A stretch of DNA of 64,000 nucleotides from GCA_000165345.1 CM000429.1:160001-224000, one strand, 5' to 3'. Positions 3-61,605 are shown, counted from the first letter of the stretch. Notes: generated from the letters alone by a model not told the origin. Program-made: numbers and translations.

Positions 3-3000
3 GGGTTAAAAGACTCAGGTGGACAAATTCTTGACTCCTCTATATTTGGAGAGGAAGAAACAAAGGAAAAATTTGCAGAAGTTATTAGTCACAATGAGAA
101 AGGTGATATTGTAGGAAGTTCGAATGCAACTCAGAACCAGATTTTGATTAGCTTGGACTACTTAAATGTAACATCTTCTTTAGAACACACTTTATCTGAA
201 TCTTATAATTCTTTTGATGGGTGTTCTCTATTTGATGATGATGGAATGAAGAAAGAAAAGGATTCGAAAGAAGGATCAGGAGGTAAATCCAGAGAGAGAG
301 GCCAGTCTATTCAGGAGCAGCTATCTTCTGATTTGTTAGCTTTGGGAATGCAGGCTGTATTGAAAAGGAAATACAATGAAATTCGTCTTTCATCTAAGTT
401 TTCTTTTGAAGAAATGACAAAGTGCCTTTTTGTAGACAATCATTCAAAGAAAGAGAATATTAATATAGATAATGGTCATGATTACAGAAAATCATTTATT
501 GAATGTTGTTCTTCTTATATTCCAGATGTATTAGGAAAATTGACTTTAAAGCTTATAAATAAGGCAGATGTGAAGGAATATATTTTAAACTTTTGTACAG
601 ATTTGAAACTAATGCTTGAGGAAATTGGAATTGCATTTCGAATTCCATTTAAATGGCTTCCTTCTGCATCTGAGAAGCTTAGCTTTTTATCAAAGCTTAA
701 AATTTCTGGTTCAAAGAATTTAGTAAATAACAAGAAATATTGTCATTTACCAAGAAAAACCTTGGATATTGTATTTGATGTGGATTTAACTTTATTAACA
801 ATGGTCCCAGTATTTGAAGTAACTCCTGGTGAAAAATCAATCATGCTTGAAATGCTTGAAGTTCCTCAAGAGCTTAAAGCTGAAGGGAAAGACTTCAAAT
901 TTAATACAAGACGTGCGAGTGACAATACAATAAGGTATAATATTCCTCATGAAGTCCATTTGAATCCTCAAACTATTGGACTTTTGTTTTCACTCTATTA
1001 TAGAAGATTCTTAGATCCTTGTGTTGGGTCATTAAGTATATTATCAGCAGGTTTTAATACTATCTTAAAATTTGCAACATCAATGGATATTGAGCCTATT
1101 CTAAGTCCATCAAGATTTCATTTAAGTGATACACTAATGGAGTTGTTTCCTGGTGATAATGAAAGTTCATGGGCTACTGAAAGACCATCTCTACAAGCCT
1201 TCAAAGAAAATAGAATATCAAGCATTCCATTACCACCTTTACATGTTTCTGCGGCTGATACAGATTTTGACAATGACAAGCCTCAAAAGCTCATTCGATC
1301 GTTTCCTGAAGGATTTCCAGAAATAGTATATAATGGTTTACCTTTTCTAGTTAAAGATATGCAAAGATACAGACTTCATTCTACATTACAAAAAGGAAGT
1401 AGTTCTTTTGATTATATGATATTATCTGAAGAATTGAATCCTATGTTTTTAAATACTTTAAGGCTTTACCAAACAATGAAGAGATATCCCATACTAACTC
1501 ATCCTTTTAATAACCCAAAACTATTTTCAAATAACAGACCACTATCACTTTTGGTTGATGATGAACTTTTGCATTTCACATATGCTTGTTCAATGGAAGC
1601 ATGGAGTGATAACATATTAATTGCTTGGACTGAGAAGCTTGGCCCTAGAGAAGTTAAGATTCCATTTTCAAAGTATTATTTACCAATACCACTGCAACAT
1701 AGTCAGCCAAAGCCAATAAAAATGGGTGATTTCTCAAGAAATATTAATATGATGATGAATTTAGACTATTTTGAAGGCCTTACTTATCAAATCAGTCAGT
1801 TAAAATCTTTAAACACCACAGGAAAATCTAATCTTGGTAAAGAAAAACGTTCTAAAGCTTTTGACGAATTAAAAGATATGGAGCAATTCTTGTCTTCTGT
1901 GAGTGAAAATGATCTTGAATGGTCTGGAAATTTTAATATTCAACGTAATAATCTTTTTAATATTAATATTAATAATACCACCAGTTCTATTACTCCTAGT
2001 AAATTACTCCAATTGGTATATCCAGATGTTAATAATTCAAACAATATGTTTTCTTGTCCATATGACATCACCAATGTTAAAATCTTTTATATGGTTGTAA
2101 TTCTCCCATGTGAAGTACTTTATATGATACATCGTAAATTAAAACAAATACAAAATGACAAAAAGGATCCATTCTATAAGTTGGTTAAAATGATTGATAT
2201 GTTTGTTGTAGGTAATGAAAGAAAAGATGAAATTTGTGATCGATTTATAAGTTCTTTATCAGGAGTTATTGCCTTTAAGAACGAAGAAAGTCTATTTAAT
2301 AAAAAGGTTATTTATTCATCTATTCCATCTCTTGCTGCACTCAAGTCTGTTGTTGGTCTTCCAATATATAGAACTATTACTATTTGGCTACAAAGTTCTA
2401 GTTTATTTGAAGAACCACAAATATTACGTACTGAAATGGAAAAAGATATTGAAATTATGGAAAATCAATTAAAAAATACTCCTTATGAACCTTTATCAAC
2501 ACCTAAGCAACTTCAAAATGGTATTATTTATGATCGATCTGTATATGATATTGAAAGTTTAATTATATTGGAACCTATTCGGGGTAAATTTACACGTGAA
2601 GTTCTCAAGTTTGATAATATACAAGAAATTGATGATTTATTGGGTTTACTTAAGTTATTAACTACTATAAGAAATAGTTTAGAACTTGGATATCGTGATG
2701 TAAAAAAGAGAGTCAATTTAGAAAATCCTTCTGCAGCTACTTCTATTTCAATTATTGCAGTTTTGGTATATTCTATTTGTTATGGAATTGCTGTTGAACA
2801 TTTTTCAAAGTTCCATTTAAATATATGTAATCTCCCTAGGCCTGCATTTTCAAGACCAGTTTTGAGAAGAAATCAACAAGATTGGATGAAGTTTGCTATT
2901 ACTAATGTTCTTACAAACTTGAATATTAAGCTTTCATTTCCAATTGCAAGATCATTTGAAAGAAAGTTAGAAGCATCTATATATGTAAGTAATCCAAAAT

Positions 3001-17998: not shown

Positions 17999-18362
17999 AA
18001 TATTTTCAATATTAAAGCGTGTTATCTTTTCAATTTTCACCTCAAAAACTCTTCAAAAATTAAATTTTATAATAAAATGGAATATCATTAATTCGCATTA
18101 CGAGGTATTGCCGGGCAATCAAAATTTAAATATATATAACTGTAATTCTGTAATACATGTAAATACGTAAGCGATCAATTAAAAAAAAAAAAAAAAAGAA
18201 GTTAAAGAAAAAGTTAATTTAATAAGAATCTTAAAAAAGTTGATAAATATAATAATTTATAATACTGAAGTCAATTTGTCCAGTTTATTTCTCTTTATAA
18301 TTAATAAAAAAAAATGAGTTAATTTATTTGCCCATGAAGAATATTTAAATTTATTTAACAAC

Positions 18363-36974: not shown

Positions 36975-37212
36975 AAGTTTGGAAATGGGTGGAATTTGCG
37001 TCAAGTGCATGCACGAGACGGCGCGCGGTGGTCTGCATGCATGCCGGTAAAAATGGGTACCGTAGGTAATAATAATTGTTGATAAGAGAGAAGAAAGGAA
37101 ATAAGAGGTGGAGAATTGTTGTAAATGTTATTATTTTAAATATAAGAATAAAATACTTACATTTTAATTTTAATCTACTTATGTATTATTTGTATGATTG
37201 ATTGATAATTGA

Positions 37213-42771: not shown

Positions 42772-43419
42772 ATGAGTACTCAAGCATTGGAGAAAATTAC
42801 TAATAAATCAGAAAAGGAAAAGATCAAAAAGGAACTATACGATGAGTACGAGATTTTCAAAGTTTCAAACATTTACAATGAAATGGACTTGACCAAAGCC
42901 ATTTCAAATGTGATTTCCTCGATTATTACTCTCTCAGGCCTGGAAGAACAGATTCAAATTTACCACAGAAAAAATATCCTAATGTTAATTGCAACTGTTT
43001 TTGGAATATTTGGAGCTGTAGTATTCAAATTTCCAAAAGATCAATGGTTTATTCTTATTTGTGTTGTAGGATTCTTTCTTTCCATGTTTGGTACATTTCT
43101 AATTGATGTAAAATCTCCATTTTCAGGTTTCACAAACTCATATATTGTTCCCAAAAAACTCCAAGAGAAAGGTGGATTTTCCTTAAAGAATATATGGAAC
43201 TATGATAAGGATGCATGCTACATTACACCAAAATTAAATCGTGCTTCAAACGATATTGAATTTTTGCTTCAAAATCAAAACCACCAAGTGTCAAAAACCA
43301 TATATGTTGGAAAATTATTCACACTTGACGGTTATATAAATACTGATGAAATTTTTGAAGTTATTAGCAAGCTAATTGTGGAATTATATGAAAAATCTAA
43401 CGAAAAGAAGAAGAAATAA
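42772..43419 (+). CDS. Small two-TM membrane protein of 215 aa, possibly a signal peptidase complex subunit 2 (SPCS2)-like protein.
   Basis: ATG at 42772 confirmed. There are two closely spaced hydrophobic helices (ILMLIATVFGIFGAVVF and FILICVVGFFLSMFGTFLI), separated by a short loop (KFPKDQW), then a soluble C-terminal domain and a poly-K tail. Topology and length resemble SPCS2. The family call is weak. Confidence 0.5.
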   Translation: MSTQALEKITNKSEKEKIKKELYDEYEIFKVSNIYNEMDLTKAISNVISSIITLSGLEEQIQIYHRKNILMLIATVFGIFGAVVFKFPKDQWFILICVVGFFLSMFGTFLIDVKSPFSGFTNSYIVPKKLQEKGGFSLKNIWNYDKDACYITPKLNRASNDIEFLLQNQNHQVSKTIYVGKLFTLDGYINTDEIFEVISKLIVELYEKSNEKKKK

Positions 43420-43844
43420 ATAAATAATTTACATTTTGATTTTTTCACTTCCAAATGAAATTATTCCTATATTACGTGTATTAGTTTCAAGGCAAAATGC
43501 CAGGAAATGGGCTGGCTTTTAGATATTTACTTAGCCAGATATCGCTAATTATAAAGTTATCTTCTTTAATTTCCTATCCCAATTGTTATTTCTTTTTTCT
43601 CCCTGTTCACACGAAATTCCCTTTAATTTATCTTATTTTACCCACAGCCATGTAAAATAACTGTTCCACCCCCCATTCTGACTGCACTGATTAAACTGCG
43701 GGTGAATGGCGCCAATTCCACTTTGACATTTAATTAATAATCAAGTCAAAAAAATCCTAATTCCAATAAATCAAAAAAAAAAAGAAATCCCATTAAAATG
43801 GGAAGAGTATATATTTGAGATATTTTCGGAAGGGATTTGATAAA

Positions 43845-46800
43845 ATGCCGAAGTTATCTGAATATTCAAAAGAAATTTCAAAAATAAGACGTAAGTTTTA
43901 CTTTTCCAGGCTCCGACTTAGTATTTCCAGCCCAGCAGCGCAATGTGGGAAATTGCATGCATGCAACACTGTTTGCAAATTTGCTGCCATTTATGTGTGC
44001 TGACATTAACAGAAAATAATTAACTTGAAAAATGTGAAATTTTAGAATCTCTAAATTATTCCCTTTTGGAAAATGACTCTGAAGTTCAGAGGTTAATTCA
44101 AAACAACGATCGTGCCCCTAAGAACAAAAACAAGACTTTTAATACTAAGAATGTGTGTGAATCATTTGCAATATTGTCAAATATGGAGGATCCTGCAGGT
44201 AAGTAAAGAAACATGAATTGCACTCGAATTCCTCACTTTAAAACAACTAACAATTCAATATTTTTTCAATTTAGAGTTGGATTTAGTCACGGAGGGCCCA
44301 AAGGAAAAATACAAAAAACAGATTCTAGGACTAATGAAGAATGATTTAAAGAAGAATAAGGAATTAAAAAGTGTGAGACAAGATAGAAACTATACGACAA
44401 AGAGTATTGGAATGGAATCATCTCTGAAACTTGGAATGAAAGCATTTTCATATTCAAGTGGTGCAGAGTGGAATCCAATGAATCCAAGCCTAATATGGAG
44501 AAAAAACAAGGAAAATGACGATGCATCCACAATTTCTTCATCATTCTCAAACCAAAAAGCTTTAATGAACAACCCAGGAATTATTCGAGAGTTGGAGAAT
44601 GAACTTGGACCAGTTAAAGGTTCAATCATGCTTGCAGCAACAGGAGAAAAGCTTCGAGATATTAATATTGGAAACTCTTCGATTGCAAAAGAAGTTTGGA
44701 AAGATGAACCTTTGTCTCATATTACAAAACTTACTCAGCAAGAAAGAGAGAAACAACAACTGGGATATAATTACCAAGAATCGATATATGACAATTTTGG
44801 GGTAAAACCAACAGAACTGGTAAAAATGACTGATTTTGGAAACATTAAATTACCAGTGAGAAGTGTCTTGACAATGTCTCAAGAAGCATCAAAAGAGGTG
44901 GAAAAGAAAATTTTGGATAAAGAAGGAAATCTAGAAATGAAACTTTTGAATGCAGTAGATCCCTTTAAGCAAAAATTCCACCATAATGATATGCCAGAGA
45001 ATAGGATGTTCTGTGATAGGAAGTCTTCAAAAATAGATAGACTTTATAAAAACCTTAATAATTTGAAGGATCAGATTCTTTTTGAGGATGAAATTTCCAA
45101 AGATAGAGAGAAAGAACATGAAAATGACTTGATGAAGTTACGAGCTTTTAATACTAACTTTGAAAAGCATCTTGGATTTAAACTTAGTGGGAAAGTTTCT
45201 TTAGATAATATTGGAGAACGAGTCATTTCCTTGGGAACTGATAATACTTCAAAGCAAATAGGAAAAGAGTTCAAAGAATTAAGACGACAACTTGGTTGGG
45301 AAAAAAATACAGAAAAAAATTTTAAGAACGAAGAAAAAGAATTTAATATGTATGGAAATCTTTTGGACCAAAAAAATATATCAAATGAAGCTCTCATTGA
45401 TCGTCTAATTGAAAATACAACTCTTTATCCTTGTTTTGATGAGGTACTCTTTGAAAATACTTTCAGAATACATCCTGACAAAAATAGAAATCATGTCTCA
45501 TTGATAACAGACTATTTGGATGCTACCTCAGTCTTAAGTTCCAGTGATATCCTTCTTAATATTCACAAAAAACAGTATACTCCTCCTTTGGCTGAGAACT
45601 TTCCCAAAGGTCTCCCATCCATTGTCCAAGATCCTCGTGTAATTTGGCAAAAAGAGTTCCTTAATATTCCATATGAAGTTACAGCTGATTTGATTAGAAA
45701 GATTCAAAGAGGTTTCTGGGACGAAATTTCGAATGATATAGCAAAAAGCAGTTATGGATCAATTTCAATATCTTCTGTTGAATCTATTACTAATATCAAG
45801 AAGTTTATTTTGAATGAACTCAGCTATAATTCCATATATAACGTTGATGAACCATTTGATGTCTCACCACCGAAACTACCTCCTATTGAAAGAGAACAAC
45901 AAGGAAGGATGTTAGGATCTAGTTCAAAATTTCAGCAACAAAATAACAAACTCGTTATAACTCCAAAGTTGAAATTTGGATTTGGAGGTACGAACCTAAT
46001 TTCTGGATCTATCTCTAAAATTGGAAATAAAATATTTAAAGGATCTATTTCTAGTCCTAATTCTAATGAGAGTTCCAAACCAGAGACTTTCAGAAATGAT
46101 GTCACTGTTGTTAAGTACATTCCTGATTGTGAACTATATGAGACAGCACTTTGGGGTAGATATGAATTTCCAAATGATGATTCCAATAAAGGAATTATAC
46201 GAAAAGTTAAGAATACAGAAATTAATGAAGGAGAACCTTTATATAGAGAGAATGTAATCTCAATGTCAAATGAATGGAGAGAAGATATGGAAAAGCAAAT
46301 TAGTGAAAGAAAGAAAGGAGTAGAGATGCTCGTTAATTCTCAAGAAAATAGGTCTTCTCTTCAAAACTTTACTTTGAACTTAAACAAAATTATTGATTCA
46401 AAGATTCAAAATATGGATAAAAAAGAACTCTCAAAGTTGAAAGAAATCCTTAAAGATCGTGAAGGTTTAGAAGAATTAAGTAAGACTCAGATTTCTGGAA
46501 AAGGAACAACTCTAGGAGACAATAATAAGATTCATAAAAATAGTGGACAGTTAAATATAACAGGATTTAAAAATATTGGATTTTCTAGTATTGGAATCAA
46601 TAAAGAAGGTACTTATAATCATTTGGATTCTCCAGATATCAGTAAAATTGGAATTCAACAAAACAATATCTTCAAAAAGATTAAAAATTCTCAGAAAACT
46701 GTTAAGAATAAAGTTGGTATGGCAAATATAAATGATGACTATGATGATGATGAAAGTTCTGTTAGGGACGATGATTCAGAAGAATTTGAAGATCTTTCAA

Positions 46801-48530
46801 GTGAAAATGAGGAAGATTATAGACAAATCTGTGAGACAATTCACATTGCTCCATGGGAGCCAACTAACTTAATGATGACAAAGAATCTATTCAAATCAAC
46901 AAATAATCTCTTTTCTACTTTATCTATTTTGATAACAAAAGATTCAAAGATTAAGAGTAGAGTTGAGCTTCATGAACTTGGAGAACATGGAATTATTGTT
47001 TGGATGTCTCGTGATCCTATTGGACTTAAAGAGAAGATCTTAAATTGTTGTACCGATATTAAAACAAAATTAAGAGTTAAAGGTGGGATATACTTCACTC
47101 CTGATAGTGATATATCTCCAATTGAACCTTGTACTGAAATCCCTGGAAATTTTACTTTTTCAGTAACTGGAGTTAATTTGCCTCATCTTATTTTGAATAA
47201 GAGTTCTATCAAACAATTGGAATGTGTTAAGAAATATGTCAAAAATTATGAGAATTCATTCAATGAACTTTCTAATAATGGTAGTATAAGTAATTTTAAT
47301 GGGAATGATCCAATGTATCAAAAATCTCTAAATACAGGAATTAAATACAATGAAAATAATCTTGTTAATGATTCTCCAATATTAGAACAAACTCAATTTG
47401 GAATCAATGCAGATACAGATATTGAAATAATTACAAGATATGATAAGAAAAGCATTAATAATATTGATGTAATGAATTTGATTCCAGCATTGAATAATAA
47501 TCAGATTTCTGGTCAGAATACAATTTTGGTAGTATCAGAAAATCCTTTTATAAAAGGAATACTTCCATTAACTTTGTCAGATTTTCCAAAGACTACAATG
47601 AAGTTTAGTTTAAGAAGGAATCGTTTATTATTGTGGAGATCAATAAAGTGTCAGATTTGGAAGACTCAATATATTGAATATTGTTTTAAGAGTTCAGTAG
47701 TTCCAGCAAAAAAGGTGATAACATTTATTTCAAATGCTTTTTTGAAATCAAATACTTCAAATTCTTTTGATATGGGAGGATTAATATTTAACGAGACTTT
47801 ATTTTCTCATTGTATTAATGTTGCTTTATCCAGAAAAGACCCTAAAGAAATGATTTTCAGGGGTTGTTATATGGGAGATGATGGTTTTCATGCAATTTTC
47901 CCTTTACTAACTCAAGTAAAATCTTTAGGAAAATTGGATTTGGGGATGAATAATTTAACAGCTCGTTCTTTACCTTTAATATTAGAGGTTGTGAAAGGAT
48001 GTAATTGTAAGAAACTCTTATTGGACTTTAATAATTTGGGTCCAAACAAGACAAAGCGTGAATTTTCAGTCTTCTTTAAACATATACTATTTTCAACGAG
48101 TATAGAACATTTGAATCTTTCAAGAAATAAAATTAATGGAAGATGTATTGACTCTTTGGATACTATTTTGGATAACTTGGGGATGAAAAATAAGACTTTA
48201 GAGACTTTAAGTTGGTGTTCAAATGGAAATACTCAACCTGAGATTGAGACATTATTACTTGCTCTTCAACCTTGTTGTGTAAATCTTTCAAAGGTGTTTT
48301 TAGGAGGAAATCCTATTGAAAGGATTGATGCTTTTAAAAGGAGATTTAGTCCAATTCGTATAATCATGGAGGATATAAGTTCTCATTATGTTACCAAAGC
48401 TGGAGTTAATCAAGGAGAAGGTAGCTACTTTTCAGATTCTAAAGAGAGAAAATCAAGAGGAATGAGTAGGAAAAGTCTTACATCAAATTCTAATTTGAGT
48501 TATACAAACTCTGGTTTGTTTAGTCAGTGA
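43845..48530 (+). CDS. Large leucine-rich-repeat (RNI-like LRR) protein of about 1,485 aa, modelled as three exons: join(43845..43890,44046..44198,44275..48530).
   Basis: The main ORF-track start at 44277 is a TTG, and the first internal ATG is 20 codons downstream. Upstream, ATG GAG GAT CCT GCA G|GTAAGT (donor at 44199) plus the acceptor caatttag| at 44274 join in frame with phase 1. That exon's frame stays open for 46 codons upstream of its ATG and ends at the acceptor ttttag| at 44045. It is phase-compatible with a 46-nt first exon (ATG at 43845, reading MPKLSEYSKEISKIR, donor C|GTAAGT at 43891). The C-terminus carries RNI-type LRRs (LGKLDLGMNNLTARSL..., LNLSRNKINGRCIDSL..., LETLSWCSNGN...). 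Confidence is about 0.85 for the main exon, about 0.6 for exon 2 and about 0.4 for exon 1. Confidence 0.55.
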
Positions 48531-49498: not shown

Positions 49499-51472
49499 AT
49501 GAATTATATTATTTTTCTGCATACAGCTTACCTAATACTTGCTAGAATAAGTTTTGGTTTTGGGGAAGAACTTCGTCTCTCAAACTCGAACAATTTCGGA
49601 AAGAATGATATTAACAATGGTAATAATTCACTTTATGTAAGTAATTCAACCAATAATAATTCTTCCAATAATAGATTTACAACAACAACAACAACAACAA
49701 CAACAGTTAGCACATTAATGACAGCAAATACCATTATTAATAAAAGTAATGAAATTGATGTTGGATTTCAAATAACAACTCCTGGTCCAAAATATGTACA
49801 GAATCTGTTAAATGCTGGTGGAGTATCCAATAGTGAGTCATTAGTAAAACAACTGGGGCTTGAAGATCTCTCAGAATTTACAAAAATAGACTCAGTAGTA
49901 TTATTTTATGTACCATGGTGTGTATATTGTCGAGGAATTATGCCTGAATTTGAAAAAGCTGCAAATATATTTAAAGGGAAGAAAATAAGTTTTGGGAAGA
50001 TTGATTGTAATGAGCATCGTAAAGTAGTATTATTGGAACAAGTAATTAGATTTCCAACAATTAAAATATATTCTGAGGGTCAAAGCCAATATTATTCTGG
50101 GCTTCCAAATTCTGTTTCAATTGTCAATTTCGTGAATAGCGAATTCAACAGAGATATTTCAATTTCCAGTTTGAGTGTACTTGAAGTTTTCCTAAATACA
50201 GATAACAGTTCTATCAAAGCAGTAGCAATCGTTGATCATGAAAATAATGATGAAAGTGATTCAATGTCTTTAGTTTCTTCTTCATATTCAAAACTGAGCC
50301 ATAAATATCATAATATTTTCTTTGCACATACTTTAACTAATAATACTGAAGTTTTGAACTTTATCAAAAATTATTCAAAAGATAATAATAAATCAAGAAA
50401 TGTGATAAACCATAGTAATTCAATAAAGGAAAATACTTTAGCAATTTTTACACCTTGGGATGATAATTCAGATAAACAAGATGATTTTAATAAAAATGAT
50501 GGGAATAAACATGGGCTGATTTTGATTGATAAAGTAGATTTTAGTAACTTTGAGAATTTGGAGAAACAAATTTTAAAATACCAATATCCATTAATTACTG
50601 AATTTGATCCTTTAATTGCTCAAAAATTATTTTTGGGTGAAAAAACAATTTCTTTCCTCTTCGTCAACAATGATGTACCAAATTTGAAATTAATAATGGA
50701 GAAATATAGAGAAATAGCAAGGCAATTCAGAGGGGAGATCCTCTTTGTTAAATCAGGAACTAATCTTGCTCATGAGAGAAGAATTGCCCAAGTTTTGATA
50801 CCAGAAGAATGTAAACTTCCTTGTATTTCCATAATAAAGTTTCCAAGTGTTGATGAAGGGAAGATGATCGCTCCAACCTTACCAAATATGCCTCCAATGA
50901 AACGCCCTCAAGCTCCACTAATTTATAGATGTCGGTTTTCTGGGCCAGACTTACTGAAAAATTCAAATCTTGAACACTTTATTCAAGATTTTGTATCAGG
51001 AAGACTGAACCCATATTTTAAAAGTGAAGAACCTCCATCTGAAGAGGATAACGATGGACCAGTTCGTATAGTAGTTTCAAAAACATTCAAAAAAGAAGTA
51101 ATTGAAACAAATTTGGATGTCTTGATAGTTTTTTATGCTCCTTGGTGTGGTCATTGTAGAAAATTGGAACCAGATTATAATGTTCTTGCTCAAAGACTAC
51201 GTGGCATTAGTGATAAGCTTAAGATTGCAAAGATTGATGGATCTCAGAATGAAGTTGAGAATATACAAATTTTGGGTTATCCCTCGATTCTATTATTTAA
51301 ATCAGAAATGAAGACTGAACCAATTTTGTATAATGGCGACAGATCTGTTGCAAACATGATAGAATGGATTTCTAAAAATGCAAGCTTTAAATTTGACCAT
51401 ATGCAGTATTTAAATCCTGAGCTAGCTTTTGAAGATGATGATCTTGATATGGCAATTTCTCATGAATTATGA
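49499..51472 (+). CDS. Protein disulfide isomerase-like protein with two thioredoxin domains, a signal peptide and a C-terminal HEL tail.
   Basis: ATG at 49499 confirmed. The N-terminal hydrophobic signal is MNYIIFLHTAYLILARISFGFG. Two thioredoxin active sites are present: FYVPWCVYCRG (CxxC) and FYAPWCGHCRKL (CGHC). The protein ends ...AISHEL, a KDEL-like ER-retention variant. A poly-Thr run is encoded by an (ACA)n microsatellite. Confidence 0.85.
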   Translation: MNYIIFLHTAYLILARISFGFGEELRLSNSNNFGKNDINNGNNSLYVSNSTNNNSSNNRFTTTTTTTTTVSTLMTANTIINKSNEIDVGFQITTPGPKYVQNLLNAGGVSNSESLVKQLGLEDLSEFTKIDSVVLFYVPWCVYCRGIMPEFEKAANIFKGKKISFGKIDCNEHRKVVLLEQVIRFPTIKIYSEGQSQYYSGLPNSVSIVNFVNSEFNRDISISSLSVLEVFLNTDNSSIKAVAIVDHENNDESDSMSLVSSSYSKLSHKYHNIFFAHTLTNNTEVLNFIKNYSKDNNKSRNVINHSNSIKENTLAIFTPWDDNSDKQDDFNKNDGNKHGLILIDKVDFSNFENLEKQILKYQYPLITEFDPLIAQKLFLGEKTISFLFVNNDVPNLKLIMEKYREIARQFRGEILFVKSGTNLAHERRIAQVLIPEECKLPCISIIKFPSVDEGKMIAPTLPNMPPMKRPQAPLIYRCRFSGPDLLKNSNLEHFIQDFVSGRLNPYFKSEEPPSEEDNDGPVRIVVSKTFKKEVIETNLDVLIVFYAPWCGHCRKLEPDYNVLAQRLRGISDKLKIAKIDGSQNEVENIQILGYPSILLFKSEMKTEPILYNGDRSVANMIEWISKNASFKFDHMQYLNPELAFEDDDLDMAISHEL

Positions 51473-61560: not shown

Positions 61561-61605
61561 AAAATGACGTAATATATTTGCATGCATGCAATTATACCGG
61601 TATGG
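61561..61605. promoter_or_regulatory. MND1 upstream cluster: CRE-like TGACGTAA at 61565-61572, TGCATGCATGCAATT at 61580-61594 and ATACCGGTATGG at 61594-61605.
   Basis: This lies 110-150 nt upstream of the MND1 ATG at 61453 on the minus strand. Confidence 0.45.

Follow-up and report, generated by a model that had tools for sequence, protein, structure and literature searches.

The 5' end of the Cryptosporidium parvum gene cgd1_790: three coding exons and a conserved block of promoter-type motifs in the first intron

The cgd1_790 locus and its product

The DNA analyzed here (the window, 64,000 nucleotides) is part of chromosome 1 of Cryptosporidium parvum, has a G+C content of 29%, and is dense in long, intron-poor open reading frames (ORFs). 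The gene under study is cgd1_790 (cpbgf_100790 / CPATCC_0038580). Its upstream neighbor, cgd1_780, is a 215-aa ORF (42772-43419) whose orthologues match the SPC25 family, and its downstream neighbor, cgd1_800, encodes a protein disulfide isomerase (49499-51472); the order cgd1_780, cgd1_790, cgd1_800 agrees with the window. The features of the locus are as follows.

43702-43727, no strand assigned: promoter block GTGAATGGCGCCAATTCCACTTTGAC, the most conserved non-coding 26-nt window of the region
43845-43890, + strand: coding part of exon 1, 46 nt; ATG, 14 codons, and 1 nt (MPKLSEYSKEISKIR, phase 1)
43891-44045, + strand: intron 1, 155 nt, GTAAGT...TTTTAG
43941-43966, no strand assigned: intron 1 block, a G-box-like TGTGGGA and two overlapping AP2_1 palindromes
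43973-43998, no strand assigned: second, weaker stretch in intron 1, identity 0.70 (5 species)
44046-44198, + strand: exon 2, 153 nt, QSLNYSLLEN...NVCESFAILSNMEDPA; donor GCAG/GTAAGT
44199-44274, + strand: intron 2, 76 nt, GTAAGT...AATTTAG
44275-48530, + strand: exon 3, the long ORF, over which orthologues align at full length
47643-48410, + strand: predicted C-terminal leucine-rich repeat (LRR) domain of the ribonuclease-inhibitor type, residues 1190-1445

When positions 43845-43890, 44046-44198, and 44275-48530 are joined, both junctions (43890 to 44046 and 44198 to 44275) are in phase 1, the frame is maintained, and a product of 1484 aa results with one stop codon, which is terminal. The initial annotation had placed a 46-nt first exon at ATG 43845 and had joined the exon 2 donor GTAAGT to an acceptor at 44274, and these coordinates and phases proved to be right. 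The exon 1 ATG stands in the context AAAATG, is the earliest ATG in its frame, and is followed by a donor of the form GAC/GTAAGT. TTAAC or ACTAAC sequences are found 21-24 nt before the AG of each intron, and those at 44006-44010 and 44020-44024 in intron 1 (TTAAC) and at 44246-44251, 24 nt before the AG of intron 2 (ACTAAC), are candidate branch points. We consider it very probable that this is the 5' end of the gene, that is, three coding exons separated by two short GT-AG introns, with the start codon at 43845 and a product of 1484 aa. Translation would then begin at ATG 43845 in its AAAATG context, splicing would proceed from 43890 to 44046 and then from 44198 to 44275, and introns of 155 and 76 nt would fall within the first 200 nt of coding sequence.

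As had been noted, the long ORF starts at a TTG (44277). This triplet is an internal Leu codon (..AELDLV..), and it would merely mark the place where a bacterial-style ORF caller begins. A TTG start turned out to have little value as a diagnostic, since three other long ORFs in the window start with TTG or GTG. In these ORFs, at 18040 (- strand), 21201 (+ strand), and 39570 (- strand), an ATG in an A-rich context is present 13-18 codons further in, and for this reason they need no upstream exon.

The openness of the exon 2 frame had likewise been taken as a sign of coding sequence. The frame is indeed open above ATG 44183, but it does not end at the acceptor as had been thought; it continues for 53 codons up to a TAA at 44021. 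Stop codons occur at a frequency of 0.074, or one per 13.5 codons, and a run of this kind is unlikely by chance in this particular frame (p about 0.02-0.03). In the upstream region as a whole, the longest stop-free run is 68 codons, a length reached in 24% of shuffles of the 855-nt stretch. The open-frame argument is weak on its own, and it is the comparative evidence, not the statistical evidence, that is decisive.

With regard to the protein, the modeled structure indicates that the cgd1_790 product ends in an LRR domain of the ribonuclease-inhibitor type, which is seen by fold and not by sequence profiles. In the AlphaFold2 model, this domain has a mean pLDDT of 78 and comprises at least 8 alternating strand/helix units, and a Foldseek comparison with the PDB returned NLRX1 (3un9; E 1.7e-8), ribonuclease inhibitor, and the LRR domains of NLRP proteins. 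For the same region, Pfam yielded no family at E <= 0.1, the best sequence match in the PDB had an E value of 0.033, and a profile search gave nothing. The N-terminal 296 residues were modeled with low confidence (pLDDT 50, pTM 0.16). Among the 66 residues added at the N terminus, two segments are conserved (LSxYSKEISKIR.S.NYSLLEN and NV.ESFA.LS.LEDPAELD), with a variable basic linker between them.

Conservation of the short exons and choice of start codon

The 5' DNA of C. parvum was aligned with that of eight orthologous species and with a genomic contig from run SRR31860986, giving ten species in all. The tenth species is represented by Logan contig SRR31860986_11048; it was considered as a transcript and rejected as such, being genomic DNA of a further Cryptosporidium species.

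When spliced at the aligned sites, exon 1 measures 46 nt in each of the ten species. Exon 2 is 147, 150, 153, 156, or 159 nt long, always a multiple of 3, both introns are bounded by GT and AG, and the frame is open after splicing, again in 10/10 species. The introns range from 67 to 213 nt (intron 1) and from 55 to 135 nt (intron 2) and fall into all classes modulo 3; retention of intron 1 introduces stop codons in each of the nine species tested. Intron interiors vary freely in length and sequence, the exception being the block at 43941-43966. Mean pairwise identity is 0.83 for exon 1 and 0.71 for exon 2 (0.79-0.80 at its ends and 0.55 in the middle), falling to 0.40 over the 5' part of intron 1 and to 0.36 over intron 2. 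Among the seven closest species, the variable sites of exon 1 are distributed over the three codon positions as 2/3/10, mostly third positions, and over exon 1 and the alignable ends of exon 2 pN/pS is 0.13-0.33 (seven species pairs), indicative of purifying selection. Given that its length, phase, donor, and amino acids have been kept in ten species and that it is under purifying selection, exon 1 is translated.

The orthologous proteins bear the same signature, and a check of their N termini, as had been proposed, settled the choice between MPKLSEY and MEDPAE. Among the proteins retrieved in a search with the spliced product was one from C. hominis that has exactly 1484 aa and shares its N terminus. 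An N terminus of the type MxxLSxYSKEISKIR is present in C. hominis, C. meleagridis, C. tyzzeri, C. ubiquitum, C. canis, C. felis, C. xiaoi, and C. ryanae and has diverged in C. serpentis; the full-length orthologues with this N terminus or its diverged form include those of C. ubiquitum, C. canis, C. felis, C. xiaoi, C. ryanae, and C. serpentis. Some of these protein models may have been propagated by homology, but the DNA-level tests are independent of them. Both exon-exon junctions were also scanned in metagenome contigs, with 0 matches each, as expected for that collection.

The initial annotation had offered as an alternative that transcription begins inside intron 1, at the block with the G-box and TGCATGCA, so that the protein would start at ATG 44183 in exon 2 or at the next Met and exon 1 would lie outside the main mRNA; the product would be MEDPAE..., 1424 aa, encoded by two exons. 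There is something to be said for this idea, in that conserved promoter-type motifs precede exon 2 by approximately 90 nt, nearly all GCATGCA sites in the window fall outside long open frames, and a two-exon MEDPAE model has in fact been deposited for C. hominis UKH1 and TU502_2012 (P0011). However, the Met at 44183 is not conserved: it is found only in C. parvum, C. hominis, C. meleagridis, and C. tyzzeri, and in 8/10 species compared at the DNA level the codon is CTG, TTA, CTA, TTG, or CTT, all of which encode Leu. Hence, MEDPAE is not the ancestral or main start. The constraint on exon 1 described above argues in the same direction, as does the long-read-curated BGF annotation, which has only the 1484-aa product in this protein cluster. 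We therefore regard an internal start of this kind as very improbable as an account of the main product, while a minor internal start at cgd1_790 may exist.

Even harder to credit is the intron-less legacy model, in which translation starts at ATG 44334 (MKNDLKK, 1398 aa, XP_627928.1) and all of the preceding DNA serves as promoter or untranslated leader. It is the original annotation of both Iowa II and C. hominis TU502, and its start Met is retained from C. parvum to C. felis. Yet this Met is replaced by Ile in C. xiaoi and C. ryanae and by Leu in C. serpentis, both the splice sites and the coding character of the preceding frame are conserved, and evidence-based reannotations have superseded the model. 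The three-exon structure starting at ATG 43845 is correct and conserved in ten species, and it is already present in current C. parvum annotations.

Some deposited models of other species deviate from this structure. Those of C. ubiquitum (cubi_00076) and C. felis continue past the end of exon 1 and rely on non-conserved splice sites within intron 1, and the model of the chipmunk genotype I is devoid of exons 1 and 2, which are nonetheless intact in its DNA (L001 3001-3250, L003 3001-3260, and L007 about 2480-3000). For C. ubiquitum and C. felis, the conserved sites would provide the simpler model, and both deposited models could be corrected on this basis. Intron 1 was also considered as an alternative coding exon and rejected, as the read-through frame stays open for only 8 codons in C. 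hominis and 4 in the chipmunk genotype I.

Conserved non-coding blocks upstream of the gene and in intron 1

The block at 43702-43727 has a mean pairwise identity of 0.93 (5 species) and is found in every species compared at the DNA level except C. serpentis. Its core, at 43707-43714, is an E2F-type palindrome, TGGCGCCA, 138 nt upstream of the start codon. The block matches E2F motif 3, DTTGSCGCCH (PMC3734150), and E2F is the leading motif of open chromatin upstream of C. parvum transcripts (PMC11761812). We infer that transcription most likely starts between this E2F site and ATG 43845.

Two further elements were seen in the upstream region. A mini-ORF, ATGGGAAGAGTATATATTTGA (MGRVYI*), occupies 43798-43818 on the + strand, 47 nt before the start codon and in a different frame. 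C. hominis, C. ubiquitum, and the chipmunk genotype I retain it in the form M[GR]RV[YC]I*; C. canis and the SRR31860986 contig have other ATG-led mini-ORFs in the corresponding position, and C. felis has none. If located inside the 5' untranslated region, the mini-ORF would be a uORF, a type of element for which, according to a 2025 review, there is as yet no description from Cryptosporidium. With an identity of 0.77, CCAGATATCGCTAATTATAAAGTTAT at 43535-43560 ranks third among the conserved non-coding blocks; it lies approximately 115 nt past the stop codon of cgd1_780 and may be a 3'-end element of that gene. Finally, a match to the Rfam C/D-box snoRNA snoR31 at 43399-43479 (+ strand), overlapping the end of the cgd1_780 ORF, is probably due to chance, as it scored 24 bits against a gathering score of 44 (E 0.3).

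The second most conserved non-coding window of the region is the block in intron 1, which lies downstream of the start codon. Over its 26 nt (43941-43966), identity is 0.84, level with the exons, compared to 0.36-0.40 in flanking intron 1 sequence and intron 2. It opens with the G-box-like TGTGGGA at 43944-43950 in C. parvum (TGTGGGG in other species), followed at 43954-43965 by two overlapping AP2_1 palindromes, TGCATGCATGCA. The latter sequence matches BGCATGCAH twice, and TGTGGGA/TGTGGGG matches DTGTGGGG (motifs from PMC3734150). Complete or partly diverged, the block is present in every species at the DNA level except C. serpentis; C. xiaoi, C. ryanae, and the SRR31860986 contig have a recognizable copy, whereas the 67-nt intron of C. 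serpentis has none. The weaker stretch that follows it contains the palindrome GCAAATTTGC at 43975-43984. Since the read-through frame breaks in C. hominis and the chipmunk genotype I, the block is non-coding.

The initial annotation had described intron 1 as a 155-nt intron with a promoter-type motif, and both the length and the motif, GCATGCATGCA at 43955-43965, were borne out. It had also called such a motif unusual in an intron, which is a fair remark: with both strands counted, the window has 27 occurrences of GCATGCA where 2.6 would be expected, and 16 of the 17 distinct sites are located in DNA outside long open frames, which makes up 22% of the window. A copy elsewhere, TTGCATGCATGCAA at 61579-61590, is the same as that in intron 1 (43953-43966) and lies in a stretch without a long ORF. 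Three more GCATGCA copies are clustered at 37006-37044, in a 238-nt gap between convergent ORF ends (36974, + strand; 37213, - strand). This trio in a 3'-3' spacer could be the promoter of an antisense lncRNA; AP2_1 and E2F motifs have been reported less than 100 bp upstream of antisense lncRNAs (PMC7840661).

The intron 1 block is most likely an ApiAP2-type DNA site. In array experiments, done in vitro with bare motifs, the ApiAP2 domain of cgd2_3490 bound [T/C]GCATGC[A/G] and that of cgd8_810 bound G.GGGG (PMC3734150). Tentatively, and as a sizeable possibility that we would not put quite on a par with its opposite, the combination of the G-box and the double TGCATGCA may constitute a functional DNA regulatory module that has been kept in intestinal species and is absent in the gastric C. 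serpentis. Such a module could work as an enhancer within the gene, as an internal promoter used at a particular stage, or as a promoter of antisense transcription; for the last option, the motifs reported upstream of antisense lncRNAs (PMC7840661) are again of relevance.

Conceivably, the block might instead act as RNA, be it through a structured element, a small RNA hosted by the intron, or a splicing-regulator site of the UGCAUG type, but we consider this improbable. The block does reside in a transcribed intron and is conserved to the extent that exons are, and UGCAUG is known as a motif for splicing regulators in animal introns, which counts in favor of a role at the RNA level. On the other hand, shuffled sequence folds just as well as intron 1 (z = +0.31), and the covariation term in the alignment fold is unfavorable. 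Within intron 1, an Rfam search gave no match and a tRNA search found none. The same palindromes are found throughout the window in DNA outside long open frames, C. serpentis splices its 67-nt intron 1 without the block, and ApiAP2 domains bind these palindromes on protein-binding arrays (PMC3734150). A site acting as DNA is thus the reading that we prefer. If the suggested module is real, it would provide a documented example of transcription factor sites within an intron of this very compact genome, for which we found no mention in the literature searched.

Gene models and relation to known systems

The proposed coding structure does not differ from that of current C. parvum references. Over 1484/1484 residues, the spliced product is the same as QOY43549.1, WRK30471.1 (CPATCC_0038580), WKS75977.1 (cpbgf_100790), and EukProt P003803, and the 1484-aa KAL5370317.1 belongs to the same 90% cluster. 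Identity of the public C. parvum proteins over the whole of this length means that the start codon and both introns are the same, and cpbgf_100790 and CPATCC_0038580 therefore have the same coding structure as our three-exon model. The authors of the IOWA-ATCC annotation state that RNA-seq supports 100% of its introns, which is a genome-wide statement and not a per-gene record (PMC8744675), and curation of the BGF annotation made use of Iso-Seq together with stranded RNA-seq (PMC12179316). As the structure is already annotated in current C. parvum references, the 5' exons of cgd1_790 are in themselves an ordinary finding.

Three versions of the gene coexist in public records. A 1484-aa protein starting at MPKLSEY is found for C. 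parvum IOWA-ATCC and BGF and in a recent C. hominis model, and starts of this type also occur in C. tyzzeri (1483 aa) and C. meleagridis (1496 aa, MPNLSEY). A 1423-aa protein starting at MEDPAE represents C. hominis UKH1 and TU502_2012 (OLQ18607.1, PPA63917.1; P0011), and a 1398-aa protein starting at MKNDLKK represents Iowa II 2004, C. hominis TU502, and UdeA01 (P0017, P0013). The legacy cgd1_790 record (XP_627928.1 / EAK88495.1, "leucine rich repeats, coiled coil", 1398 aa) has the same locus and long exon as the three-exon model but is intron-less and begins 86 residues further in. The C. hominis UKH1 / TU502_2012 model uses intron 2 and starts at MEDPAE, which corresponds to the fallback in the initial annotation; it is without exon 1 and most of exon 2, and its start codon is not conserved beyond the C. 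parvum group. Users of the truncated models for the 2004 cgd1_790, C. hominis TU502, or the chipmunk genotype I miss 61-86 N-terminal residues, among which are two conserved segments. In the literature searched, "cgd1_790" was mentioned in a cluster table only, and the lncRNA tables of PMC7840661 contain neither cgd1_780 nor cgd1_790.

It is the conserved block in intron 1 that represents the only part of these results beyond the public record, and we regard it as a modest lead for Cryptosporidium gene regulation. Intron-borne promoters and first-intron enhancers are known from other systems, for example, the intron of the Plasmodium falciparum var genes. Like the var intron, intron 1 of cgd1_790 would be a case of promoter-type elements in an intron of an apicomplexan protein-coding gene, a likeness that is positional only. 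Closer at hand are the upstream cis-elements that Oberstaller et al. (2013; PMC3734150) described for Cryptosporidium, namely, E2F (TGGCGCCA), AP2_1 (BGCATGCAH), and G-box (DTGTGGGG), all three of which are conserved here. Whereas the elements described in that study are upstream and intergenic, the predicted AP2_1 and G-box pair of cgd1_790 is located inside the first intron.
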